DNA of 11,032 nt from an uncultured bacterium (GTDB lineage: Bacteria > Krumholzibacteriota > Krumholzibacteriia > Krumholzibacteriales > Krumholzibacteriaceae): contig CAWFAD010000015.1 in NCBI GenBank assembly GCA_963813815.1, positions 1 to 11,032 on the forward strand. Direction: 5' to 3'. This document shows positions 1 to 11,032 of this stretch, in pieces; position 1 is the first letter of the stretch, and every line of letters starts with the position of its first letter. The position numbers and the translations under genes were made by a program. The notes under the pieces were generated by a model that was not told the origin of the DNA, searched no databases, and worked only from the letters and a program-made list of their open reading frames with translations.

Positions 1-19
1 ACGGACTGGAAGGCAGCGC

Positions 20-304
20 ATGACTAACGTCTCGAACGTGCCTGAAGAAGTCCGCGCGGTCGCTGCCGACGGCACCAAGCTGCGCTATGCGCTGATGGAG
101 CTGTCCAATCAGTATCCCGATGCGATTGCGCTGGGCCGCGGTGACCCTGATCTGGCCACGCCGCGCAACATCATCGAAGCGGTCGAACGCGCCATCCGTA
201 ACCAGCAAACCGGGCCGACACCCGTCGCGGGCATGCCCGCGCTGCGCGAAGCGGTCGCTGAAAAGCTGCGTCGCGAAAACGGCCTGCCTGTGACTGCCGA
301 AAAC
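20..304 (+). other. N-terminal fragment (~95 aa) of a class I/II PLP-dependent aminotransferase (AspC/AspB-like), truncated at an apparent chimeric junction
   Basis: The translation has the fold-type-I N-terminal motifs 'DAIALGRGDPDLATPRNIIEA' (cf. I.L..G.PD..TP..I.EA) and 'GMPALREAVAEKLRRENGLPVTAEN' (cf. G..ELR.AIA..L....G). The expected 'I.IT.G..EA' does not follow. SD-like GGAAGG at 8-13 precedes ATG 20. All 8 Leu codons are CTG and 8 of 9 Glu codons are GAA, unlike the CTC/GAG preference of the rest of the window. Confidence 0.8.
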
Positions 305-505
305 CAGCGCGCCTGCCTCGCGCGCGGCGGGGCGTTCGCGCGGCCCGCCTTTTGGGGCGCCTTCCGCGTGATCGGCGACGGCGCGGCGGCGCCGGAGCTT
401 TCGCCGGGATTCGATCCGGCGACCTGGATTTCGATCGTGATCCTCGTCGCCGCCGGCGCGGCATTCGTCTGGAACGCCCTGAGGAGGCGTCGGTTCGGTG
501 GATGA
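305..505 (+). CDS. C-terminal fragment of a CHAT-domain (caspase-HetF-associated, clan CD) protein with a C-terminal membrane anchor; 5' part absent
   Basis: 'QRACLARGGAFARPAFWGAFRVIGDG' matches the CHAT C-terminal signature (AQ..L.......HP.YWAAF.L.GD). It is followed by a short linker, a hydrophobic helix (WISIVILVAAGAAFVWNAL) and RRRR. The stop TGA at 503-505 overlaps the GTG start of the next gene. Catalytic His/Cys motifs are not in the window. Confidence 0.75.
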   Translation, partial: QRACLARGGAFARPAFWGAFRVIGDGAAAPELSPGFDPATWISIVILVAAGAAFVWNALRRRRFGG

Positions 506-1790
506 ACGCATTCAAACGGCGACCGACGAGCAGATCGCGGCGGCGATAGCCGTGAGTCCGCGCGAGGATCTCTGCGCGGAGCTCTATCGCCGGTACGACA
601 AGCGCGTGTACCTCTGGTGCTTTATCCATGCGCACGAATCCGACGAGTCGATCGCCCTCTCCCAGGAGATACTCGAGAAAATGGTGTGGGGCATCGGCGG
701 CTTCGCGGGAGGCTCGAGATTCTCGACGTGGGTGTATCAGATCGCGAGAAACGAGTGCCGCGGCGAGCTCCAGAAGCTCAGGGGGCGCTGGCGCGAGAGG
801 CTTCGCGCGTTCGAGGGCGAGTTCGTCGAGGCGCTCGAGCCCGGGTTCTACGAGTGGGTCGACGGCAAGTGCAACTGCGAGGGAATTCTCGAGTCCGCGA
901 CCGGCGCCATGGACAAGGAGGAGCTCCAGGCGTTCGTCCTTCACTACTGCGACGGGTTCGCCGTGAAGGAGATAACGAAAATGCTCGGATGCCGGAACGC
1001 CGCCGCGGCGCGGACGCTCATCCAGAACGCGCGGCGCAAACACATCGCTCTCGATTCGGGGCAAGCGCCGTGCGGCTGCGGGACGGCGGGCGGGAACCAC
1101 GCGTCGATCGAGACGCTCGCCGCGCTGCTCGAGGGCAGGCTCCCCGCGCGCGATCCGGACGCGACGCGGGAGCACATCGCGCGCTGCGCGCTCTGCGACC
1201 TCGCCTCGAAAAGGCTCGAGCGCTTCATCGGCGTGGAAGCGGACGAGGAGCTCGCGCGCTCGGCCGAATGGATCTACGCCCGCGGCAAGCTCGAGCGCGC
1301 GTATGAGGAGCGGATCGCTCCGCTCGTGGCGAAACGCGGCCTCGCCGCCTCGACCCGCCGGTTCGGTCTCCGCCGGTCGCTCCTGATCGCGGCGGTCGCG
1401 GCCGTCGCGGTCGCGATCGTAGCGATCGCCCGCCTCGCGACGAGGGAGGGGAACGTGCCGCCGGCGACCGGGCGGGAGGCCATGCGCGGCGCGCTGATAG
1501 CCTCCTATGCGATCGCGCCGGTCGCGCCGTCGGGGGACATCGAGGGTTTTCCGGCGGAGTTCTCATGGAAGGACTCGCGCGGAAAGAGCCTCTACACGCT
1601 CGAGATATTCTCCCCGTCGCTCGAGCGCGTGTACGCCGCCCCGGACCTCGCGTCGACGCGGTTCGCCTCTCCCGAGAGCCTCCGGGCCGTCCTCCGGCCG
1701 AACGTCATCTACCTCTGGAGGGTGAAGGGGCGCGAGGATCTCGGCTCGGCGGAGCCCTCCCCGAGCTGCTGGTTCCGGTACGGCCGCTGA
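498..1790 (+). CDS. ECF (sigma-70 group 4) sigma factor fused to a zf-HC2/ZAS anti-sigma domain, a TM helix and an extracytoplasmic FN3/Ig-like domain
   Basis: Sigma region 2: 'LYRRYDKRVYLWC...QE...F.GGSRFSTWVYQIARNEC'. Region 4: 'EELQAFVLHYCDGFAVKEITKMLG...ARTLIQNARRK'. ZAS domain: 'HASIETLAALLEGRL...REHIARCALC' (H201; H226xxxC230xxC233). TM helix at aa ~295-311, preceded by RRFGLRR. C-terminal beta-rich domain 'P..F.W......Y.LEI...Y.WRV'. GTG start with SD GAGGAGG at 481-487. Confidence 0.88.
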   Translation: MDERIQTATDEQIAAAIAVSPREDLCAELYRRYDKRVYLWCFIHAHESDESIALSQEILEKMVWGIGGFAGGSRFSTWVYQIARNECRGELQKLRGRWRERLRAFEGEFVEALEPGFYEWVDGKCNCEGILESATGAMDKEELQAFVLHYCDGFAVKEITKMLGCRNAAAARTLIQNARRKHIALDSGQAPCGCGTAGGNHASIETLAALLEGRLPARDPDATREHIARCALCDLASKRLERFIGVEADEELARSAEWIYARGKLERAYEERIAPLVAKRGLAASTRRFGLRRSLLIAAVAAVAVAIVAIARLATREGNVPPATGREAMRGALIASYAIAPVAPSGDIEGFPAEFSWKDSRGKSLYTLEIFSPSLERVYAAPDLASTRFASPESLRAVLRPNVIYLWRVKGREDLGSAEPSPSCWFRYGR

Positions 1791-1891: not shown

Positions 1892-3076
1892 ATGGACATC
1901 AAGAAGATTCAAGAGGCTCTCCGCGAAAAGCGCATCGACGGCTGGCTCCTCTGCGATTTTCACAACCGCGATCATCTCGCCTACCGCGTGCTCGGGCTCG
2001 ATTTCGCGAAGGGCACCTCCCGGCGCTGGTTTTATTTCATCCCGGCGAAGGGGGATCCGGTTCGCCTCGTCTCCGTCGTCGAACCGGCCCGCCTCGACGC
2101 GCTCCCCGGCGAGAAACGCTCGTATCGCGCCTGGGGCGATCTGCACGCGGCGCTGGGAAAGCTCCTCGGCTCCCACAAGAAGATCGCGATGCAGTACTCG
2201 CCGATGAACAACATTCCTTACGTGTCGATCGTCGACGGCGGCACGATCGAGCTCATCCGGAGCCTCGGATACGAGATCGTGTCGTCGGCGGATCTCGTGC
2301 AGCAGTTCGAGGCGATCATCGACCGCGCCGGGTACGAGAGCCATCTGCGGGCCGGCGACAAGATTCAGCACATCAAGAACGAGGCCTTCAAGGAGGTCGG
2401 CCGCGCGCTCGCCAAAAAGCAGAAGCTCACCGAGTACGAGCTCGCGCAGTTCATCCTGAAACGGTTCGCCGAGGAAGGGCTCACCTGCGGCAACGAATCG
2501 CCCATCGTCGGGATCGGCGACCATCCCGCCGATCCGCACTTCGAGCCGAAGAAGGAAGGAACGTACGCCTTCAAGAAGGGCGACTGCTTCCTCATCGATC
2601 TGTGGGCGAAGTTCGACAAGCCGGGCTCGATCTACTACGACATCACCTGGTGCGGTTTCGTCGGGGACGAGCCGCCGGAGAAGTATCTCGAGATCTTCCA
2701 CACCGTGCGCGACGCGCGCATCGCCGCGGTCAACTTCGTCCGCAAGCGCTTCGCCGCGAAGAAGCCCTGCTTCGGCTGGGAAGTGGACGACGCCTGCCGC
2801 GACGTCGTGAAGGACGCCGGATACGGGGACTACTTCGTCCACCGCACCGGCCACTCGATCGGCGAGGAAGTGCACGGGAACGGCGTCAACATCGACAATC
2901 TCGAAACGAAGGACGAGCGCGAGCTCGTGCCGGGCATCTGTTTCTCCGTGGAGCCGGGCATCTACCTCCCGGGCGAGATGGCCGCGCGCAGCGAGATCGA
3001 CTGCTTCATCACGCTCGACGGCGAGGTCGTCGTCCACGGCGAGGAGCAGATGGAGCTCGTGCGGGTGCACGTCTAG
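1892..3076 (+). CDS. M24 family metallopeptidase (Xaa-Pro aminopeptidase/prolidase-like), 394 aa
   Basis: Pita-bread metal ligands are present: 'LIDLWAK', 'YYDITW', 'HRTGHSIG..VHG', 'SVEPGIY', 'RSEID'. There is a creatinase-like N-domain. ATG 1892 follows SD GGAGG (1877-1881) and lies downstream of the promoter, so it is preferred over the 1823 start in the ORF track. Confidence 0.93.
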   Translation: MDIKKIQEALREKRIDGWLLCDFHNRDHLAYRVLGLDFAKGTSRRWFYFIPAKGDPVRLVSVVEPARLDALPGEKRSYRAWGDLHAALGKLLGSHKKIAMQYSPMNNIPYVSIVDGGTIELIRSLGYEIVSSADLVQQFEAIIDRAGYESHLRAGDKIQHIKNEAFKEVGRALAKKQKLTEYELAQFILKRFAEEGLTCGNESPIVGIGDHPADPHFEPKKEGTYAFKKGDCFLIDLWAKFDKPGSIYYDITWCGFVGDEPPEKYLEIFHTVRDARIAAVNFVRKRFAAKKPCFGWEVDDACRDVVKDAGYGDYFVHRTGHSIGEEVHGNGVNIDNLETKDERELVPGICFSVEPGIYLPGEMAARSEIDCFITLDGEVVVHGEEQMELVRVHV

Positions 3077-3131: not shown

Positions 3132-3476
3132 GTGTACGAGCATCGCTCGGACCCGCTTCTCGCGCGCTCCCTGTTCCTGCGCCGGGTGTTGCTTCACGCG
3201 CTCGCCGGGACCGGCATCATCATGGCATCGCTCGGCATCGGGGTCGCCGGCTACCGGTTCATCGCCGGGCTCTCGTGGGTGGACGCCCTTCTCAACGCCT
3301 CGATGATTCTCGGAGGAATGGGGCCCGTGAACGAGCTCGGCACGAACGCCGCCAAGATCTTCGCGTCCTTGTACGCCCTCTTCGCCGGCATCGCGTTTGT
3401 GGCGACCGCCGGCGTTTTCGCGGCCCCCGTCGCGCACCGGCTGCTGCACCGGATGCATCTCGAGCGCCGCGGATAA
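3132..3476 (+). CDS. Small 2-TM membrane protein with potassium-channel pore-like (Ion_trans_2-like) architecture and a non-canonical filter
   Basis: Layout is TM1 (…GIIMASLGIGVAGYRFIAG), pore-helix-like 'LSWVDALLNASMIL', loop 'GGMGP', 'TNAAKIFASLYALFAG' and TM2. This parallels K+ channel 'W.DA.Y....T.TTVGYGD..P.T..GK.F...Y.L.G'. GTG start with GAGG at 3124-3127. Confidence 0.72.
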   Translation: MYEHRSDPLLARSLFLRRVLLHALAGTGIIMASLGIGVAGYRFIAGLSWVDALLNASMILGGMGPVNELGTNAAKIFASLYALFAGIAFVATAGVFAAPVAHRLLHRMHLERRG

Positions 3477-3505: not shown

Positions 3506-5617
3506 CTACGCGGCCGGCTTGGTCCGCTTCAGCGCGTAGCGCAGGAGCACCCCGCACAGCGCGAGAAAGACGCAGAGCCCGAACCAGCTCGCCTCGCTGA
3601 GATCGCCCAGAATGCGCGGACCGATCGCGAGCTTCGTGTCGAGGTCGAACCCCGTCACGAAGGCGAAGATCAGCCCTCCGATCGCCCCTCCCGCGATGAG
3701 CCCGCTCGAGAAGAGCATGCCGGGGCCGGATTCGTCCTTGGCCTCGGCCCCCCGCTTCGCGAACTTGTCGACGCCCCACTTGATGAGGCCTCCCGCGAAG
3801 ATCGGCACCGAGGTGGACATCGGGAGATAGACGCCGACGGCGAAGGGGAGCCCGCGGACGCCGCAGAGCTCGACCGCGATCGTGAGGCAGATGCCCATGA
3901 GAATGAGGACCCAGGGGAGCTTGCGGTTCAGCACGCCGTCGATCACGGTCGCCATGAGGCGCGCCTGCGGAGCGGCGAGCTTCGAGGAGCCGATGCCGGC
4001 CTCCTGCTTGATGACCTCGCGCGGCTCGCCGCGGCTCACGAGATACTTCTCGCCCGAGCCGTGAATGCCGAAGACGTCGAACGCGGCGCCGTCCCTCTCG
4101 ACCGCGCCCTCGGCGACCGCCTCGGCGGGGACGACGAACGTCGAGTCGGCGATCCGCTCCTCCGTCGTGAAGGCGCTGTTGAGCGTCACGACCGTGAAGC
4201 CGACGACGAAGATCGACGTGAAGGCTCCGATGATGTAGCCGTACTCCTGCTTGCGCGGGGTGCAGCCGAGGAGGTAGCCGGTCTTGAGCGCCTGCGCCAC
4301 GTTCCCCGCGTTCGACGCGCAGATGCAGACCACGGCGCCCACCATGAGGGCCACGGCCGTGTAGACGCCGCCCGTCCAGCCGACCCCGAGGAAGATGAGG
4401 CAGGTCGCCATGAGCGTCGCCACCGTCATGCCGGAGGTGGGATTGGACGAGACGCCGATCTCGCCGACGAGCCGCGAGGAGACGGTCGCGAAGAAGAAGC
4501 CGAAGACGATGATGAGCGCCGTCGCGATGAAGTTGCCGCCGAGGTGCCCCGGATGGATGACGAAGTTGAGGAGCGCGTAGATCACGACGAACGCGACCGC
4601 TATGCCGGCGATGACGAAGGTGATCGGGAGGTCCTGCGATATCCGGTCGACGACGCGCTTCTCGCCCTTGCCGCGGCGGATCTCGGCGAAGGAGTCGCGG
4701 AACGAGTGCGCGATCGTCGGCATCGCGCGGACGAGGTTGATGAGCCCGCCCGCGACGACGGCGCCGGCCCCGATGTAGCGCACGTAGCGGCTCCAGATGA
4801 CCGAGTAGTTGGTGATCTCGCCGATCGTCGTGGTCGCGCCGTCGACCGTGATCGGCGTCGCGGCGCCGAAGAACTTGATGAGCGGAATGAGGAGCATCCA
4901 CGAGACGAAGCCGCCCGCGACCATGATCGAGGCCGTGCGCGGCCCGATGATGTAGCCGACGCCGAGGAGCTCGGGGGATGCCTCCGCGATGACGGTGGAG
5001 CCGCTGTAGAAGGCGGGCTTCCACACCGGCTGCTCGCGCCAGAACCGGAACACGTTCATGAGGAGCTTGTAGGCGAGGCCGAGCCCCGCGCCCCAGAACA
5101 CGGCGCCCGCGTGCGCGCCCCCCTTCTCTCCGCTTTTTATGACCTCGGCGCAGGCGATCCCTTCGGGGTACGGGAGCACGCCGTGCTCCTTCTCGATGAG
5201 GATGCGCCGGAGCGGTATGAGGAAGCACACGCCGAGGCAGCCGCCGGCCAGCGCCACGACGAACGTCTTGGTCACGTCGAGCGTGAAGCCGAGAAAGATG
5301 AGCGCGGGCATGGTGAAGATGATGCCCGCCGCGATCGATTCCCCGGCGGCTCCCGTCGTCTGCACGGTCGCGATCTCGAGGACGGTCCCCTTCGTGCCGC
5401 CCTTCGATTTCGCGAAGGCGGCGAAGACCGCCATGGCGATGATCGCGATGGGGATGTTGACGGCGACGGTGAGACCCGCCTTGAGACCGAGATAGACGGT
5501 GACGGCGCTGAAAACGAGTCCGAGGACCGCGCCGAGCACGACGGCGCGGAGGGTGAACTCGTTCATCGCGACCGTGACCGGCACGTAGGGCTGGAACGCC
5601 TTTTTCTCTTCGCTCAT
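3506..5617 (-). CDS. OPT family oligopeptide transporter (bacterial OPT/YSL-like)
   Basis: OPT motifs are present: '[32 protein letters not shown]', '[21 protein letters not shown]', '[12 protein letters not shown]', '[18 protein letters not shown]', '[17 protein letters not shown]', '[15 protein letters not shown]', '[12 protein letters not shown]', '[11 protein letters not shown]', plus many TM segments. ATG 5617 has AGGA 5 nt upstream. ATG 5623 is the alternative start. Confidence 0.95.
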
Positions 5618-5660
5618 GCTCATCCTTTCGCGCGACGGTACGGAACGATTTCCGGGGGGC

Positions 5661-5735: not shown

Positions 5736-6446
5736 GTGACCATGGAATCGCCTTTTTCGATACGGGAGAATCTCGAGCGCGTGCGCGAGCGCATCGCCCG
5801 CGCCGCCGAGCGCGCCGGCCGGAGCGCGGCGGACGTCGCGATCGTCGCCGTCACGAAGACGCACGGGCCGGAAACGGTGAGCGAGGCGATCGAGGCCGGC
5901 GTCGCGGACGTCGGCGAGAACAGGGTGCAGGAGTTTCTCGCCAAGGCCCCCGCGGTGAAGCTTCCCTGCCGGTGGCATCTCGTCGGCCATCTCCAGACGA
6001 ACAAGGTGAACAAGGTCATCGGCCGCTTCGCGCTCGTCCAGTCCGTCGATTCGTTGAAGCTCGCCGAGCACCTCGGCCGCGCGGGAGAGGCGGCCGGCGT
6101 CTCGACGGACATTCTCCTCGAGGTGAACACGAGCGGCGAGCCGTCGAAGTACGGCCTCGCGCCCGAGGAGACGCTCGCCGCGTGCGGCCTCGTCGCGAGG
6201 ACGGCGAACGTGAGGGTTCGGGGCCTCATGACGGTGGGCCCGCTCTCGAGCGACGCTGCGGCGACGGCCGCCTCCTTCGCGAGGCTCCGGCGCCTCGGCG
6301 AGGAGATCGAGGCGGCCCGCATCGACGGGGTGTCGATGGAGCGCCTCTCGATGGGCATGTCGGACGACTTCGAGATGGCGATCGCCGAGGGCTCCACGAT
6401 GGTCCGCCTCGGCCGGGTGCTCTTGGGAGCCCGGGAGAGGGCGTGA
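5736..6446 (+). CDS. yggS: YggS/PROSC family PLP homeostasis protein (PLPBP)
   Basis: Family motifs 'IVAVTKTH' (PLP lysine), 'GENRVQE', 'WHLVGHLQTNK', 'EVNTSGEPSKYG', 'RGLMT' and 'LSMGMSDDFEMAIAEGSTMVRLGR' are present. The start is either GTG 5736 or ATG 5742. Confidence 0.96.
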   Translation: MTMESPFSIRENLERVRERIARAAERAGRSAADVAIVAVTKTHGPETVSEAIEAGVADVGENRVQEFLAKAPAVKLPCRWHLVGHLQTNKVNKVIGRFALVQSVDSLKLAEHLGRAGEAAGVSTDILLEVNTSGEPSKYGLAPEETLAACGLVARTANVRVRGLMTVGPLSSDAAATAASFARLRRLGEEIEAARIDGVSMERLSMGMSDDFEMAIAEGSTMVRLGRVLLGARERA

Positions 6447-6523
6447 CGGAAAACCGGCCACGAGGGCCGGCCGCCAGGCGGGCTCCTGAGCAGCCGCGGG
6501 GGAGCGCCTCGGAAATCGGCGAA

Positions 6524-6529
6524 TATAAT
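6524..6529 (+). promoter_or_regulatory. Candidate internal -10 element upstream of yggT-divIVA-DUF167
   Basis: Perfect TATAAT inside a conspicuous AT-rich patch (~6512-6560), 20 nt before ATG 6550. SD-like AAGGA at 6541-6545. No recognisable -35. Confidence 0.45.
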
Positions 6530-6549
6530 ATGTTGAATAAAAGGAAGTT

Positions 6550-6807
6550 ATGGGCTATTTTGTCAGCGACGGGGTTGGCCTGACTATTGCTTTGCTGAAC
6601 ACGGCGACTTTCGTTACGCTCTGCTACGCGTTTCTCAGGGCGGTCGAGGAGAGGAGCAGGGTGCTCCACGCGCTCGATAAGATCTATGCGCCGGCGCTCT
6701 CGCCCTTGCGGCGAATTCTCCCGGCGTGGAAGATCGACATCGCCTCCCTCATTCTCGCCGCCGCGTTGCAGGTTGTGGCGTTCATGATCAAGAGGCACTC
6801 GCTCTAA
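6550..6807 (+). CDS. yggT: YggT/YlmG family membrane protein (divergent)
   Basis: 'LDKIYAPALSPLRRILPAWKIDIASLIL' matches the YGGT signature (L...T.P.L.P.RR..P....D.S.I.), flanked by two hydrophobic segments. Its position between yggS and divIVA is the usual one. Confidence 0.8.
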   Translation: MGYFVSDGVGLTIALLNTATFVTLCYAFLRAVEERSRVLHALDKIYAPALSPLRRILPAWKIDIASLILAAALQVVAFMIKRHSL

Positions 6808-6828
6808 GGGCGACGAGGAGGCAGCGCG

Positions 6829-8097
6829 ATGCGAATCACTCCGCTCGATATCAGAAAGCAAGAATTCAAGAGAGTCATGCGCGGGCTCGACGTCGACGAG
6901 GTTCACGCGTTTCTCAATACGGTCGCGGAGGAATACGAAGCCGTTCTCTCGGACAACAAAAATCTTCGCGAGAAGATCGTCGCGATCGAGGAGCGCCTCA
7001 ACGAATACAAGAGCATCGAGATGAATCTGCGCAACACGCTGCTCACGGCGGAGAAGCTCACGCAGGAGGCCAAGGACAACGCCCGCCGCGAGGCGAGTCT
7101 CATCGTGCGCCAGGCGGAGATGGAAGCCGAGAAGGCCGCCGATGGGATCCGCTCGCACACGGCGCAGCTTCGCCGGGAGATCCTCGAGCTCAAGAAGAAC
7201 AAGGACAACTATCTCTCGCGCCTCAGGACCCTCATCGAAGGCAACGCCCGGATGCTCGAAGGGTATGCCGAGGATTTCGCCGGCGTCGATCAGGCGATCG
7301 AGAGGATCGGCAAGCAGGTCGAGGAGGACGCGAGCCGCCCCGCGGCGCCGAACCGCATGAGCCGCGACAAGATCACGCAGGATTTCGGACATGAGCCGAA
7401 GGACAAGGTCACGTGGGGGGACGAGCGCCGGGTCGAGGAGGAGCCGCGTCCGCAGATGCCGCGGCCGGCCGGCGAGCGGGGCGAATCTCAGGACCGGAGG
7501 CCGAAGCCGCCCGAGAGCGCGAACGCATTCGCGGCGCCGCGCATGGCTCCCGCCTCGGACGAGCCGCCCCGCGCCCAGCAGCGCCCCGACGAGTCCGTCC
7601 GGCGTCCGGAGCCGAGACCGGCTCAGCCGGCGGAGCAGATGAGAATGGAGCCGATGACCGGCGCGTCGGGCGTCGGGACGAGCGCCCCCGAGCGGCCGGA
7701 GCCCGCGGCGGGCGCCGCGCCCCAGCCCCCGCAGGACGACTGGCGCGGCTACGAGGTTCGCAAGCAGGCGGTCGACTGGAAGAGCTACGTGATTCCGGAG
7801 AAGGCCGCGCCGGAGCAATCCGCGCCGCCGCCGAAGCCGGTCTCGCCGCTCGACGCCGAGCTCGACAACGCCCTCTCGAGCCTCCAGGAAGCGGCGGGCA
7901 AGGCGGAGCTTCCTCCGCAGCCGCGCCGCGAGCCGCAGCAGGCCCAGCGTCAGGCCCCGCCGCAGGCCGCCGCGGCGCCGCCGAAACCGCGGCCGGAGCC
8001 CGTGAGCGCGGAAACGACGAGCGATCAAACGTGGTCGATGGACGATCTCCGCCGCAATCTCTCGAATCTCTCTCAGGATGAAGGAAATAAAAGCTAG
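6829..8097 (+). CDS. divIVA: DivIVA-domain protein with a long Pro/Ala/Glu/Gln-rich C-terminal extension
   Basis: The N-terminus 'MRITPLDIRKQEFKRVMRGLDVDEVHAFLNTVAEEYE' is the DivIVA signature. Coiled coil ('LRNTLLTAEK...A..EA.LIV..AE.EA') runs to aa ~165 and low complexity follows. SD GAGGAGG lies upstream. Confidence 0.92.
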   Translation: MRITPLDIRKQEFKRVMRGLDVDEVHAFLNTVAEEYEAVLSDNKNLREKIVAIEERLNEYKSIEMNLRNTLLTAEKLTQEAKDNARREASLIVRQAEMEAEKAADGIRSHTAQLRREILELKKNKDNYLSRLRTLIEGNARMLEGYAEDFAGVDQAIERIGKQVEEDASRPAAPNRMSRDKITQDFGHEPKDKVTWGDERRVEEEPRPQMPRPAGERGESQDRRPKPPESANAFAAPRMAPASDEPPRAQQRPDESVRRPEPRPAQPAEQMRMEPMTGASGVGTSAPERPEPAAGAAPQPPQDDWRGYEVRKQAVDWKSYVIPEKAAPEQSAPPPKPVSPLDAELDNALSSLQEAAGKAELPPQPRREPQQAQRQAPPQAAAAPPKPRPEPVSAETTSDQTWSMDDLRRNLSNLSQDEGNKS

Positions 8098-8371
8098 AGA
8101 CGACGCGCGAATCAGCTTCCGCGTCAGAGTGCAACCGTCCGCCCCTCGAAACGAGCTCCTCGGCTGGAACACGGCCGGGGAGCTTCGTGTTAAGGTGGCG
8201 GCCCCGCCGCGCGAAGGCGAAGCGAACGCCGAGATCGTCAGATTTTTCGCGAAGCGTTTCGGGGTGGCGAGGCGCGAGATCGTTGTCGAGTCGGGCGGCG
8301 GGTCGCGAAGCAAGGTGCTCTCGGCGCCCGCGTCGATCGCCGCGGCCCTGCGGGCGCTCCCCGAAGTCTAG
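8078..8371 (+). CDS. yggU: DUF167 / UPF0235 (YggU) family protein
   Basis: '[14 protein letters not shown]...[28 protein letters not shown]...[11 protein letters not shown]' is the DUF167 signature. It overlaps the divIVA end by 20 nt, in the typical synteny. Confidence 0.92.
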
Positions 8372-11031
8372 CTTCGCGACGGCTTGATCGTGGCGACTCG
8401 CGCCGCGGCGTCGATGAGCTCGGGGATGTCGGGATCGGCTTCCGAATAGTATTCCAGAAATTTTCGGTAATGTTCGAGCGCCCCTGCGCTCTTGCCTTGC
8501 CTCTCGAGGAGCTTCGCGATGCGGTATTCGTAGCGGGGATTGAGGATCCGCCTCTCCTTGCCCGCCGGGTCGAAGACGAGGAGCTTCCCGTACTCGGCTA
8601 TCGCCCGGTCCAGGTCGCCCTTGGCGGCGCATGCCCTCGGCACGACGTCCAACTCGAACGGCACGTAGGCGTAAAACAGAGCCGGTCCCGAATCCGGCAC
8701 GTACGGCTCGAGCTCCTTGCTCCCGCAACGAATCGCATCGCGCGGGAGTCCTTCCGCGAGCAAGATCTCGGCTTTGAGGGCGGCCGCGCGGTTGGCCATG
8801 CTCTTGGCTCTTTCCTGCTCTTTCGAGCGCACCCCCGATTTCAGATCCAGGAGCCTCGTGAGCCTCGTTCGGGCCGCCGGGAGATCGCCCGTCGCCACCT
8901 CGATAAACCCGACGTAGCATTCCCGGAAAGCGACGTCATTCGGGGATTCGATCCGCGAGAAGCGTTCGGCGCCCAGATCCCCTTCGAGGACCGAGCGCGC
9001 CTCTTCGAGCCGGCCCCAGTGATAGAGCACATGCCCTTCGATGTGCTTGGAGACGAGCAGCATGTTTGAAATACCGGTCGAGTCGGCGATCTCGAACGCC
9101 CGCCGGGCGTCCCGCAGCGCTTGCCCGCGTTGCCCGCTGCATGAACGGTAGATGGCCTTCCAGCAATAGTCGCTGATGAGCTTCCCCGGTTCGATCCCCG
9201 CCTGCATGTGACTCTCGATCCATCGAATCGCCCCGCGGAAATCCCCGCGCATGCCGCACAGATACGCGAGCATGACGGCGGAGTCTATGTCGGGTTTCAG
9301 CGCATTCGCCCTTTCGTACATGCGGGCGGCATCGGCGAGCCTGCCCATCCGGAAGTACGCCTCTCCCATCGAATCGTACGGATTCCCGTCGGAGGGACAG
9401 AGCTCGCTGTATCGCCGGAAGAGCTCGAGCGCCTTGTCGTAATTTTCCATGGCGAGGTGCACGTACGCGAGATCGTTGAGAGAGATGCCGAATGTCGGAT
9501 CGAGCTCGAGGGCGCGCTCATGGTACGAGACGGCTTCGCGATACATCTTCCTCCGGCGGTACGTGACGCCGAGGGTATAGCACATGAGCTTCTCGCGCGG
9601 ATATTTCTCGAGAAGCTCCCGACCTATGCGTATCTCCTCGTCGGAGTCTTTATTAACCCGCCCGGCGTACCCCGATTCGATATATAAACGCTCGCGCTCC
9701 GTCGCCTTGCCGGAGTGGGAAAAGGCTTTCTTAAATGCTTCGAGGGCATCGGTCTCGTTAAAGGAACCGCGGTACGCCTCTCCAAGAAAGAGGTAGGCGA
9801 CGGCGAACGTCGAATCTATCTCGACGGCCCTCTCGAATGCCCGTATCGCCTCTCCGAAGTAGAACCGCTCGAGGGCGTCAGTTCCTTTGAGATAATAGGT
9901 ATACGCTTCGACCGAGGAGGTGGTCACATCGACAAGCGGACGCTGCGTCTCCGCGATCTTGCGCTCGGAGAGGCCGACGCCGCGGGATATCTGCTTGCTG
10001 AGCTTGTCCACCTGCTCGGGAATGCTCTCGAGTCCGCGTCCATCGGCGTTCGCGACGGCGAGGCTCCCCTTCGAGTCGACGTCGAGCACCTTTATGTCGA
10101 TCACGAACCTGTCGCCGAGCTTCGTGAAGGAGCCGATGACGAGCGCGTCGATCTTCTCGCGGCGGCAGATCTCGAACCCGAGGTCGGCGTCGATCTCCTC
10201 GACGCTCCGCTTCCCGGTCTGCTTGGCGAGGTCGCGGAGCCGCTCCCACGTGGCGACCTGCAGGTACTTCGATTGCTCGAGGCTCGTGATGAGGAGGTTC
10301 GGGATGACCTTCTTGAGGTTGTCGTACTGCGGATCGCCGGTCTGGTTCTCGAAGGTGATGACGGCGACGGGATGGCGCTCGGTGGCGATGGCGCCGCCGA
10401 AGAGCACGGGTCTGAGAAAGACGAACGCGGCGACCGCCGCGGCGGCGACGCAGAGGGGAACGAGTATCTTCGCGAGCCGCCTCTTCGGAGGCTTCGCTGG
10501 GGCCGCCGCCTCGAAGGATGCTCCGGGGCGGGGTGTCGCGCCCGCGGCCGCCATCCGCGACGCTGCGCCCGCCTCGAGGCTTTTTCTCAGAGCGCGCAGG
10601 TCGGCCGCGAGCTCGTCCGCGTGCTGGTAGCGCTCGGACGGGTCCTTCGCGAGCGCCTTTGCCGCGATCCGCTCGATCTCCATCGGAACGTTGGAGCGAA
10701 GGGCCGTCATCGGTTCGGGCGCCTCGTTCATGATCGAGTAGAGCACGGCCTGCTCGTAATCGCCGCGGAAGGGGAGACGCCCCGTGACCATCTCGTAGAG
10801 GATCGCGCCGAGCGACCAGAGATCGCTTCGGCGGTCCGCCTCCTTGCCGCGCGCCTGCTCGGGGGACATGTAGGCGACCGTTCCGAGCGTCGTCCCTTCC
10901 TTGGTGAGCATGGTCCGGCCCGAGAGCTTCGCGAGACCGAAGTCCATGATCTTGACGAGGCCCTCCGGCGCCACCATGACGTTCGCGGGCTTGACGTCGC
11001 GGTGAACGACGCCCTTGCGGTGCGCCGCCTC
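8368..11031 (-). CDS. Hanks-type Ser/Thr protein kinase with TM helix, TolB_N/CsgG-like domain and TPR repeats (5'-truncated by the window edge)
   Basis: The frame stays open to the window end and reads '[31 protein letters not shown]...[13 protein letters not shown]...[21 protein letters not shown]'. Hydrophobic segment '[18 protein letters not shown]' follows KPPKRR. '[12 protein letters not shown]...NLLITSL' is TolB_N-like. TPRs include '[16 protein letters not shown]', '[16 protein letters not shown]' and '[14 protein letters not shown]'. ATG 10977 in the ORF track is internal. Confidence 0.95.
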
Positions 11032-11032
11032 G

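Follow-up and report, generated by a model that had tools for sequence, protein, structure and literature searches.

Does the CHAT protease-like gene that precedes a membrane-tethered sigma factor in an uncultured member of the Krumholzibacteriaceae release that sigma factor by cutting it? The question arises from an 11,032-nt stretch of DNA (the window), which is the entire contig CAWFAD010000015.1 of assembly GCA_963813815.1, or contig C15 of the genome that we call G000. Near its start, an open reading frame (ORF) at 20..505 overlaps by 8 nt ORF 498..1790, which encodes a 430-aa fusion of a sigma factor of the extracytoplasmic function (ECF) type with its anti-sigma factor. A sequence-only reading had proposed that the CHAT protein faces outward and makes a site-1 cut that starts the release of the fused sigma factor. 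We found that its catalytic His has been replaced by Arg, that relatives with the intact His encode sigma and anti-sigma factors separately, and that the fusion arose twice. The reading that we prefer, and hold to be somewhat likelier true than false, is that this family is a split form of the DdvA-type site-1 protease switch and that the window copy is locked off, under selection that is relaxed but not absent.

The start of the window is a mis-assembled contig end, and bases 1-303 lie outside the signalling system. ORF 20..505 is a chimera, of which residues 1-96 share 93% identity with an Anaerolineae aminotransferase and residues 34-95 match PF00155 (Pfam). In this foreign stretch CTG accounts for 8/8 of the CTG/CTC codons compared to 18% genome-wide (P ~1e-6), and GAA for 8/9 of the Glu codons compared to 19% (P ~1e-5). 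A contig from run X4 spans window positions 2-270 and stops there, and the exact 27-nt junction pattern had no match in metagenome contigs. G000 encodes two CHAT genes, one of them cut short by the start of contig C2 at profile position 263 of 289. The C2 end and window positions 305-459 abut in register when aligned to the DNA of relative G010, and the locus is collinear with long stretches of C2 and with the region of the sigma and M24 peptidase genes in 5 of 7 relatives checked (among these seven, the contig of G004 carries the CHAT end only and that of G010 stops after the anti-sigma gene). The true upstream gene is therefore the TPR-CHAT gene on C2. Upstream of CHAT on C2 (L155), flavodoxin-type and DHH-like genes look frameshifted, which suggests indel errors in the assembly.

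The recovered gene codes for about 1,240 aa, starting at C2:3527 on the minus strand, with a hydrophobic, signal-peptide-like N-terminus (judged by eye) followed by TPRs and, at the other end, a C-terminal membrane anchor; for the family, this arrangement agrees with the proposed outward orientation of CHAT. The part on C2 scores 129 bits against the CHAT family PF12770, above the cut-off, over positions 5-263 of 289. The 66-aa tail in the window alone gave no Pfam match at E<=1, but at E 8e-10 it matches positions 507-538 of 539 in a CHAT profile built from relatives, and it is identical to the G004 CHAT tail at 44 of 63 positions, so that the CHAT C-terminal motif, membrane helix and RRRR first noticed in ORF 20..505 are borne out. 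The signal-peptide-like start and the TPRs that were to be looked for upstream are there, whereas the His motif is not: the catalytic His column holds Arg (codon at about C2:360-362, read from the assembly) in H-L-C-A-R-A, compared to H-x-A-[AS]-H in relatives. The Cys motif reads L-P-V-C compared to L-[SA]-[AGS]-C, with the catalytic Cys retained and its flanks altered. In the numbering of relative G012, the changes include A399C, H401R, S453P, S454V, R456L, D489E, D492E and D493G. Judged from these replacements of His, of residues around the Cys and of two conserved Asp, the CHAT protein of G000 is a pseudoprotease. A site-1 cut by CHAT in this genome is accordingly unsupported: Arg at the catalytic His is a loss that the sequence-only reading had itself named as refuting it, and further active-site changes go with it.

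Three side observations concern CHAT proteins. A new Cys at G000:C2 ~366-368 (-), two residues before the lost His, could, speculatively, form a periplasmic pair with the catalytic Cys. The second exported TPR-CHAT of this genome (L001, G000:C16:520373-521254) has an intact dyad and falls outside the sigma-linked clades. Family-level CHAT proteins at L027, L035, L036, L037, L150 and L153 have no C-terminal membrane anchor, which is thus optional.

Relatives reveal what the system ordinarily looks like. The sigma/anti-sigma pair is present in all 15 same-genus genomes and in 26 of 52 genomes of the order, and nearly all relatives encode the two proteins in separate, overlapping genes; neither the fusion nor the CHAT/sigma overlap is typical of the family, both being derived states. 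A genome scan found CHAT in 23 of the 27 best loci (L060-L086) compared to none of 53 weaker generic ECF loci (L087-L139), the CHAT-bearing loci including records from Acidobacteriota and Eisenbacteria. Searching the phylum with the anti-sigma ectodomain gave matches in 73 of 208 genomes. Forty further loci comprised 27 with all three genes, 4 without CHAT (on short contigs), 3 with CHAT and a membrane-FN3 partner without sigma, and 6 weak ones with neither. The association of CHAT with homologous sigma/anti-sigma genes, on which the sequence-only reading depended, thus holds across several phyla. We could read the His column in 50 three-gene loci from 48 genomes, in which the genes were split over two contigs for G001, G003, G013 and G020; G006, G011 and G042, whose dyad is not on the contig, were left out. 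The catalytic His is intact in 48/48 unfused loci and is Arg in 2/2 fused ones (G000 and G005), nominal odds of 1/1225 for both losses falling on the two fused loci (Fisher p). The Cys is present wherever readable in unfused relatives (it is masked by N in G010), and an apparent His loss in G057 and G043 from a pattern search was discarded on alignment, both dyads being intact. A tethered fusion is hence not the normal substrate as had been supposed, fusions occurring only in two lineages whose CHAT lost the His.

Two arrangements in relatives are recorded here for themselves. At L188, L193 and L194 a TPR-CHAT gene is divergent from a gene for a membrane-FN3 protein that keeps Arg-Gly, with no zinc motif and no sigma gene in the locus, a possible sigma-free branch. 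In G057 (L149:1010-2341, -), sigma and anti-sigma share a reading frame interrupted by one TAG, with dyad and promoter-like motif intact, one base away from a third fusion.

The start of the window is laid out as follows, all features being on the + strand.

1..303, +: 5' part of a foreign class I/II aminotransferase gene, ATG at 20 (PF00155, codon use, Anaerolineae identity).
304..309, +: 6-nt junction; the reverse complement of G000:C2 ends in the same 6 nt (sequence identity).
305..505, +: 3' end of the exported TPR-CHAT gene, with the last CHAT motif, anchor and cytoplasmic RRRR (relatives' profile, G004 identity).
425-481, +: C-terminal membrane anchor of CHAT (hydrophobic helix).
482-493, +: cytoplasmic RRRR of CHAT (sequence).
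482..505, +: AGGAGG (482-487) and 8-nt stop/start overlap, standing where unfused relatives have a spacer and TGTCA-N17-GTC (sequence).
498..1040, +: diverged ECF sigma part, region 2 at aa 29-94 and region 4 at aa 131-181 (Pfam matches, rate).
1041..1097, +: lineage-specific linker fusing sigma to anti-sigma, its CGC motif common to the related fusion P0002 (alignment).
1098..1196, +: zinc-binding anti-sigma domain with H201, H226, C230 and C233 retained (weak zf-HC2 match, invariant columns).
1380..1436, +: single membrane helix, aa 295-313, with basic residues N-terminal to it (helix prediction, model).
1482..1490, +: M329-R330-G331, a hydrophobic-Arg-small motif in the low-confidence, likely flexible periplasmic linker and the candidate cut site in intact relatives (conservation, co-fold).
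1506..1790, +: periplasmic fibronectin type III-like (FN3-like) domain, the predicted CHAT docking surface (model confidence, structure matches, co-fold).

The fusion protein has the ECF architecture of regions 2 and 4 without region 3, which scores above Pfam cut-offs in G012; in G000 the matches to sigma region 2, sigma region 4 and zf-HC2 are all below them (Sigma70_r2, 20.7 bits in G000 compared to 48.2 in G012). An AlphaFold model of the full fusion was uninformative, with a mean predicted local distance difference test score (pLDDT) of 40. In a model of the anti-sigma part, a zinc domain made of helices is followed by a membrane helix, a linker whose pLDDT is <50 and a beta domain predicted with confidence (pLDDT 88-96 per block), which among solved structures matches FN3 domains (best of many tied matches, Z 9.9, root-mean-square deviation 2.7 over 89 aligned residues). 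The idea that the anti-sigma domain is DUF928 was dropped, as it gave no Pfam match, we found no paper that combines CHAT with DUF928, and the fold is FN3-like. Cysteines common to G000 and P0002 occur as CxC between sigma regions 2 and 4 (window 873-881), as a new Cys in region 4 (948-950) and as CGC after region 4 (1071-1079). They resemble the CXC and Cys-rich tail of CorE as described in the available part of one report (PMC8999054). We did not retain a CorE-like metal switch on this resemblance, the keeping of four residues at 66% identity being unremarkable.

Fused proteins occur in two separate groups. P0002 is likewise a 430-aa fusion, 66% identical to that of G000, equal in length and with a similar Cys-bearing linker, and contigs from runs X1 and X2 cover window positions 355-1054 and 919-1076, respectively, both gapless. 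In G005 the fusion arises from one base fewer in an A run; fusions of 438 aa make up 6 of the 7 members of the G005 sigma cluster, and in its CHAT cluster Arg at the His column and an overlap-type C-terminus occur in 9 of 9 proteins. A tree of sigma plus anti-sigma (20 rows; G003, G006, G008 and G020 left out as partial) placed the two fused groups in different supported clades, with the G000 fusion nested among unfused Krumholzibacteriota genes, and a single fused clade was rejected (approximately unbiased test, p-AU 1e-63, quick tree). The fusion arose twice, independently, within one genus. A later metagenome scan recovered 9 loci, every one of them unfused. Both lineages have three changes in common: His to Arg, sigma/anti-sigma fusion and loss of a promoter-like motif.

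This motif, TGTGTCA-N17-GTC, stands directly before the sigma gene in unfused loci. Its best site falls at -31 to -35 in 41/41 close unfused loci, with a leave-one-out score >13 in 38 of them (lowest 2.6); distant loci, kept out of motif training, have a looser TGTGA form. G000 and G005 lack the site (best scores -8.3 and -8.0), and the CHAT stop overlaps the sigma start instead. Compared with relatives, the overlap reads as the scar of the motif deletion. The AGGAGG noticed within the CHAT tail is real (482-487), as is the overlap, but the translational coupling suggested from them gives way to this explanation. An in-frame start codon lies 0-4 nt past the 31-nt site in 38/41 close loci and within the spacer in several distant ones. 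Given usual ECF spacing, a transcript from the motif would probably miss the start of sigma, and only the anti-sigma factor could then be remade from it. Six further sites score >17 in the fetched loci, four of them preceding proteins with signal-peptide-like N-termini and two of these four leading to FlgD-Ig-tailed proteins. A scan of G000 for a regulon showed no excess of sites (9 above score 13, compared to 11-24 in column shuffles). Three extra strict motif matches in G023 and one in G000, scoring 5-16, have no clear gene behind them.

Where would an intact CHAT protease cut? All 61 anti-sigma factors carry a hydrophobic-Arg-small motif within 30 residues after the membrane helix, compared to 20.9 expected from shuffled linkers; it lies in the flexible linker, 9-25 residues from the membrane. 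Co-folding the CHAT region of G012 (553 aa, 33-row alignment) with its anti-sigma ectodomain (120 aa, 32 rows) scored 0.73, compared to 0.00 for the best control, although memory may contribute to the score as solved CHAT-substrate complexes exist. Of the solved complexes, 116 of 157 reach the mark that we used, as do 2 of 215 mismatched pairs. Agreement between runs was 77% of contacts or better, and the partner had a pLDDT of 78 or more. The predicted interface includes CHAT residues 399-403 (with the His) and 453-456 (with the Cys), partner residues 11-19 (with the M-R-G motif) and FN3 loops against CHAT helices 201-248. The proposed pairing of CHAT with the ectodomain thus succeeds for an intact pair; in G000, FN3 residues predicted to dock CHAT are changed. 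The closest solved relatives of CHAT are separase (PDB 5FC2/5FBY), DdvA (PDB 8ROT, E 2e-7) and Csx29. Separase cuts after Arg using an S1 Asp at Cys+41 according to the part of its description available (PMC10317155). An invariant Asp and an invariant Glu of family CHAT proteins lie near the aligned S1 position; the Asp was rejected as the S1 residue on its spacing.

Selection on the G000 copy, as judged from substitution patterns, is relaxed but not absent. Changes private to G000 and G001, counted with two outgroups, stand at 27:9 for sigma (p 0.004), 24:10 for anti-sigma (p 0.024) and 41:13 for CHAT (p 0.0002), compared to 13:9 for the neighbouring M24 peptidase and 22:19 for RpoB as rate controls. 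The ratio of nonsynonymous to synonymous substitution rates (dN/dS) between G000 and G004 is 0.41, 0.54 and 0.35 for sigma, anti-sigma and CHAT, respectively, compared to 0.13 for M24; between G004 and G010 it is 0.14 for sigma and 0.44 for anti-sigma. Of 35 sigma columns that are otherwise invariant, 4 differ in both G000 and G005 and none in the 12 other same-genus rows; in P0002, two conserved Arg are missing from the helix of region 4. For G005, a clear rate excess appears in one sigma comparison only (14:3).

On the reading that we prefer, the ancestral trio would consist of an exported TPR-CHAT protease, usually anchored at its C-terminus, an ECF sigma factor and a separate anti-sigma factor made of a zinc domain, one membrane helix, a flexible linker with the conserved Arg and an FN3 domain. 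A signal at the TPRs would activate CHAT, which in our model docks onto the FN3 domain, with contacts to the Arg linker, and may then make the site-1 cut after the linker Arg. RseP, a homologue of which is encoded in G000, would next cut within the membrane and release sigma, and the output would be secreted proteins behind copies of TGTCA-N17-GTC. The copy at the sigma start may remake the anti-sigma factor alone and so reset the switch. The window copy combines a putative pseudoprotease CHAT with a sigma factor joined to its inhibitor and with deletion of the motif, and here the switch is most likely locked off. A bolder version, which we consider unlikely, would make the family a widespread CRISPR-independent envelope switch with an Arg-cutting, separase-like site-1 protease and an anti-sigma-only promoter over the sigma start, the switch having twice been turned, through the same three changes, into a one-component sigma factor that is capped by a pseudoprotease and still signals.

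Several points weigh against the reading that we prefer. The correlation between fusion and His loss rests on two events only, and His to Arg is a single common transition. The CHAT gene and promoter of P0002 are not in the recovered sequence; of 9 candidate matches for its CHAT none could be attributed to P0002, and all 9 have the His. Open frames, dN/dS of 0.35-0.54 and a fusion shared with P0002 at 66% identity are unlike plain decay, and in G005 the anti-sigma (14:12 and 14:7) and CHAT (15:6 and 10:6) comparisons are not significant. The strict motif occurs once per genome also in the intact G012 and G004, so that the missing regulon of G000 says little. The Arg pattern found in all anti-sigma factors was chosen after viewing the data, in related sequences that are not independent. 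No pair of the Arg with His or Cys is listed in the co-fold output, whose 25 best pairs join FN3 to upstream helices. At the CHAT position aligned with the separase S1 Asp (Cys+41), Asp is not conserved, so that Arg specificity would rest on the substrate side, and both protease-dead lineages retain the linker Arg. The CHAT cut of the anti-sigma factor is itself conjectural for the family and, for DdvA, likewise only proposed.

The retained linker Arg and the signs of constraint leave room for a rewired copy in G000, in which the dead TPR-CHAT shields the Arg linker and lets go on signal, another protease (Prc, a DegP-type protease or the second TPR-CHAT on C16) and RseP then freeing the fused sigma factor by analogy with the sigma/anti-sigma hybrid IutY. 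Its frames are open with dN/dS <1, the fusion has been kept at equal length in G000 and P0002, the Arg motif and zinc ligands remain, nine near-identical dead CHAT proteins persist in the second lineage, and G000 has RseP-, Prc- and DegP-like motifs besides the second intact-dyad TPR-CHAT; IutY itself is a precedent in the accessible part of its report (PMC8999054). However, the sigma factor departs at the 4 of 35 invariant columns in G000 and G005, P0002 lost the two region 4 Arg, the predicted docking residues are altered, the released fragment would still carry the zinc inhibitor domain, and motif sites show no excess in G000. Since selection is relaxed while the frames, Arg motif and zinc ligands are intact, we rank a locked-off switch above a rewired one, which we think doubtful.

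We give a still smaller chance to a receptor or cap, namely that even an intact CHAT never cuts the anti-sigma factor but binds it through the Arg as a pseudosubstrate anchor, its protease serving another target. The Arg kept where the protease is dead, the strongest predicted contacts outside the active site, the unconserved S1 Asp and the DdvA dyad mutants, which lack a phenotype in unstimulated cells in the part of the report available (PMC11506125), would all fit such a cap. It accords poorly with the coincidence of His loss and fusion (2/2, compared to 0/48 unfused), which ties catalysis to a separately encoded anti-sigma factor, with the catalytic residues inside the predicted interface and with a motif placed 9-25 residues from the membrane in a flexible linker, where site-1 cuts are expected. 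The sequence-only model as written, an active G000 CHAT that cuts the fused protein, can appeal to the retained Cys, to a topology that fits and to the C2 sequence being an assembly reading; against His to Arg and a further seven changes in or close to the active site, a CHAT rate of 41:13 and the persistence of this His-to-Arg change in nine proteins from the second fused lineage, we judge it very improbable. Least credible of all is that the assembly produced fusion and overlap in error, as it did the chimeric contig start, an idea that draws on that start, on the apparent frameshifts of C2 and on nt 1077-1167 lying outside the listed contig pieces but that is countered by the independent 430-aa fusion P0002 with the same linker type, by the gapless X1 and X2 contigs and by the finding that a one-base change gives no nearby stop in the alternative frames.

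Beyond the fusion gene, the window carries genes unconnected to this argument. An M24 peptidase gene (1892-3076) follows the anti-sigma gene in most same-genus loci; here TTGACA-17 nt-TAGCGT (by eye) precedes it at 1804-1832, and it probably has its own housekeeping promoter. A 114-aa hydrophobic ORF at 3132-3476 (+), with no Pfam or NCBIfam match, may be akin to a two-helix channel-pore protein. The OPT oligopeptide transporter gene at 3506-5623 (-) had no match at E<=1e-100 in 5 same-genus genomes (RpoB and M24 served as rate controls instead) and was perhaps acquired, or lost in relatives. A cluster of YggS-like, YggT, DivIVA and DUF167 genes occupies 5736-8371 (+), the DivIVA tail being unusually long (~290 aa) and Pro/Gln-rich, and a gene for a Ser/Thr kinase with a membrane helix and a periplasmic TPR protein part at 8368-11032 (-) is interrupted by the contig end.

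Among known systems, DdvA/DdvS of Myxococcus xanthus comes closest, rather than Craspase. In both DdvA/DdvS and the family, a zinc anti-sigma domain with a single membrane helix holds an ECF sigma factor, and a periplasmic TPR-CHAT is proposed to cut the juxtamembrane linker before RseP. In the available part of their report, the DdvA authors propose the periplasmic CHAT as site-1 protease, which they could not demonstrate, and RseP-dependent turnover is shown once the ectodomain is removed (PMC11506125). In DdvA the TPR-CHAT lies within the anti-sigma factor, whereas the family exports it as a protein of its own and has an anti-sigma factor that ends in the FN3-like domain; in the window, the dyad is broken and it is sigma, rather than the protease, that is fused to anti-sigma. 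DdvA-type anti-sigma factors control a CRISPR/CBASS island. Family outputs look like secreted proteins with FlgD-Ig or type IX secretion system tails, and the downstream genes seen in family loci code for secreted proteins. No CRISPR link was found: in agreement with the absence of CRISPR components noted earlier, the RAMP family (Cas5/6/7; PF03787) gave no match in G000 and four relatives (84-96% complete, G000 91%); a control search matched in 5 of 14.

Craspase, the type III-E CRISPR system of Csx29, Csx30 and CASP-sigma, is like the family in that a TPR-CHAT cuts an inhibitor of an ECF sigma factor and in having sigma-binding motifs within the locus; it differs, as far as its accessible description goes, in being cytoplasmic and RNA-activated via Cas7-11 with Csx30 as substrate (PMC10028731), the family being envelope-linked with a partner made of zinc domain, membrane helix and FN3. 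Actinobacterial ECF54 sigma genes also have conserved TPR-CHAT neighbours and a proposed proteolytic control (PMC7826278; PMC8999054), but in the parts of these sources available to us they lack an anti-sigma factor and have subtilase and carboxypeptidase-regulatory neighbours and a GTATCAG/CTCC motif (PMC7826278). Separase has in common with the family the CHAT fold, the His-Cys dyad and, in the available portion of its report, a cut after Arg in an unstructured segment and the use of exosites (PMC10317155); its S1 Asp at Cys+41 is not conserved in the family, whose linkers have no ExxR motif. We found no published separate exported TPR-CHAT with a zinc domain-membrane helix-FN3 anti-sigma factor in a search outside subscription journals and preprint supplements.

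The report on DdvA, in its available part, left the site-1 role open, as the trigger is not known and enzyme and substrate are one chain (PMC11506125). The split family makes the question testable with purified domains, as it offers a separate enzyme, a small separate substrate, a named candidate bond (after Arg) and a candidate reporter promoter, and the intact trio has a cultured carrier in Paludibaculum fermentans (locus L073). The window copy is the worst one to assay, and a negative result with it would mislead. The contribution of the window lies in a named candidate cut site, for which the co-fold passed, and in two natural losses that occurred independently; these losses are comparative evidence that catalysis, a separate anti-sigma factor and the promoter motif belong to one circuit. 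Like the window protein, IutY of Pseudomonas putida and the ECF48/52/53 groups combine sigma, anti-sigma, membrane helix and periplasmic part in one polypeptide. According to the accessible part of the report, these are old group-wide fusions, IutY being processed by Prc and RseP (PMC8999054), whereas the window fusion is recent, arose twice in one genus and goes with the loss of a dedicated protease; the two loss events show how one-component membrane sigma factors can arise.

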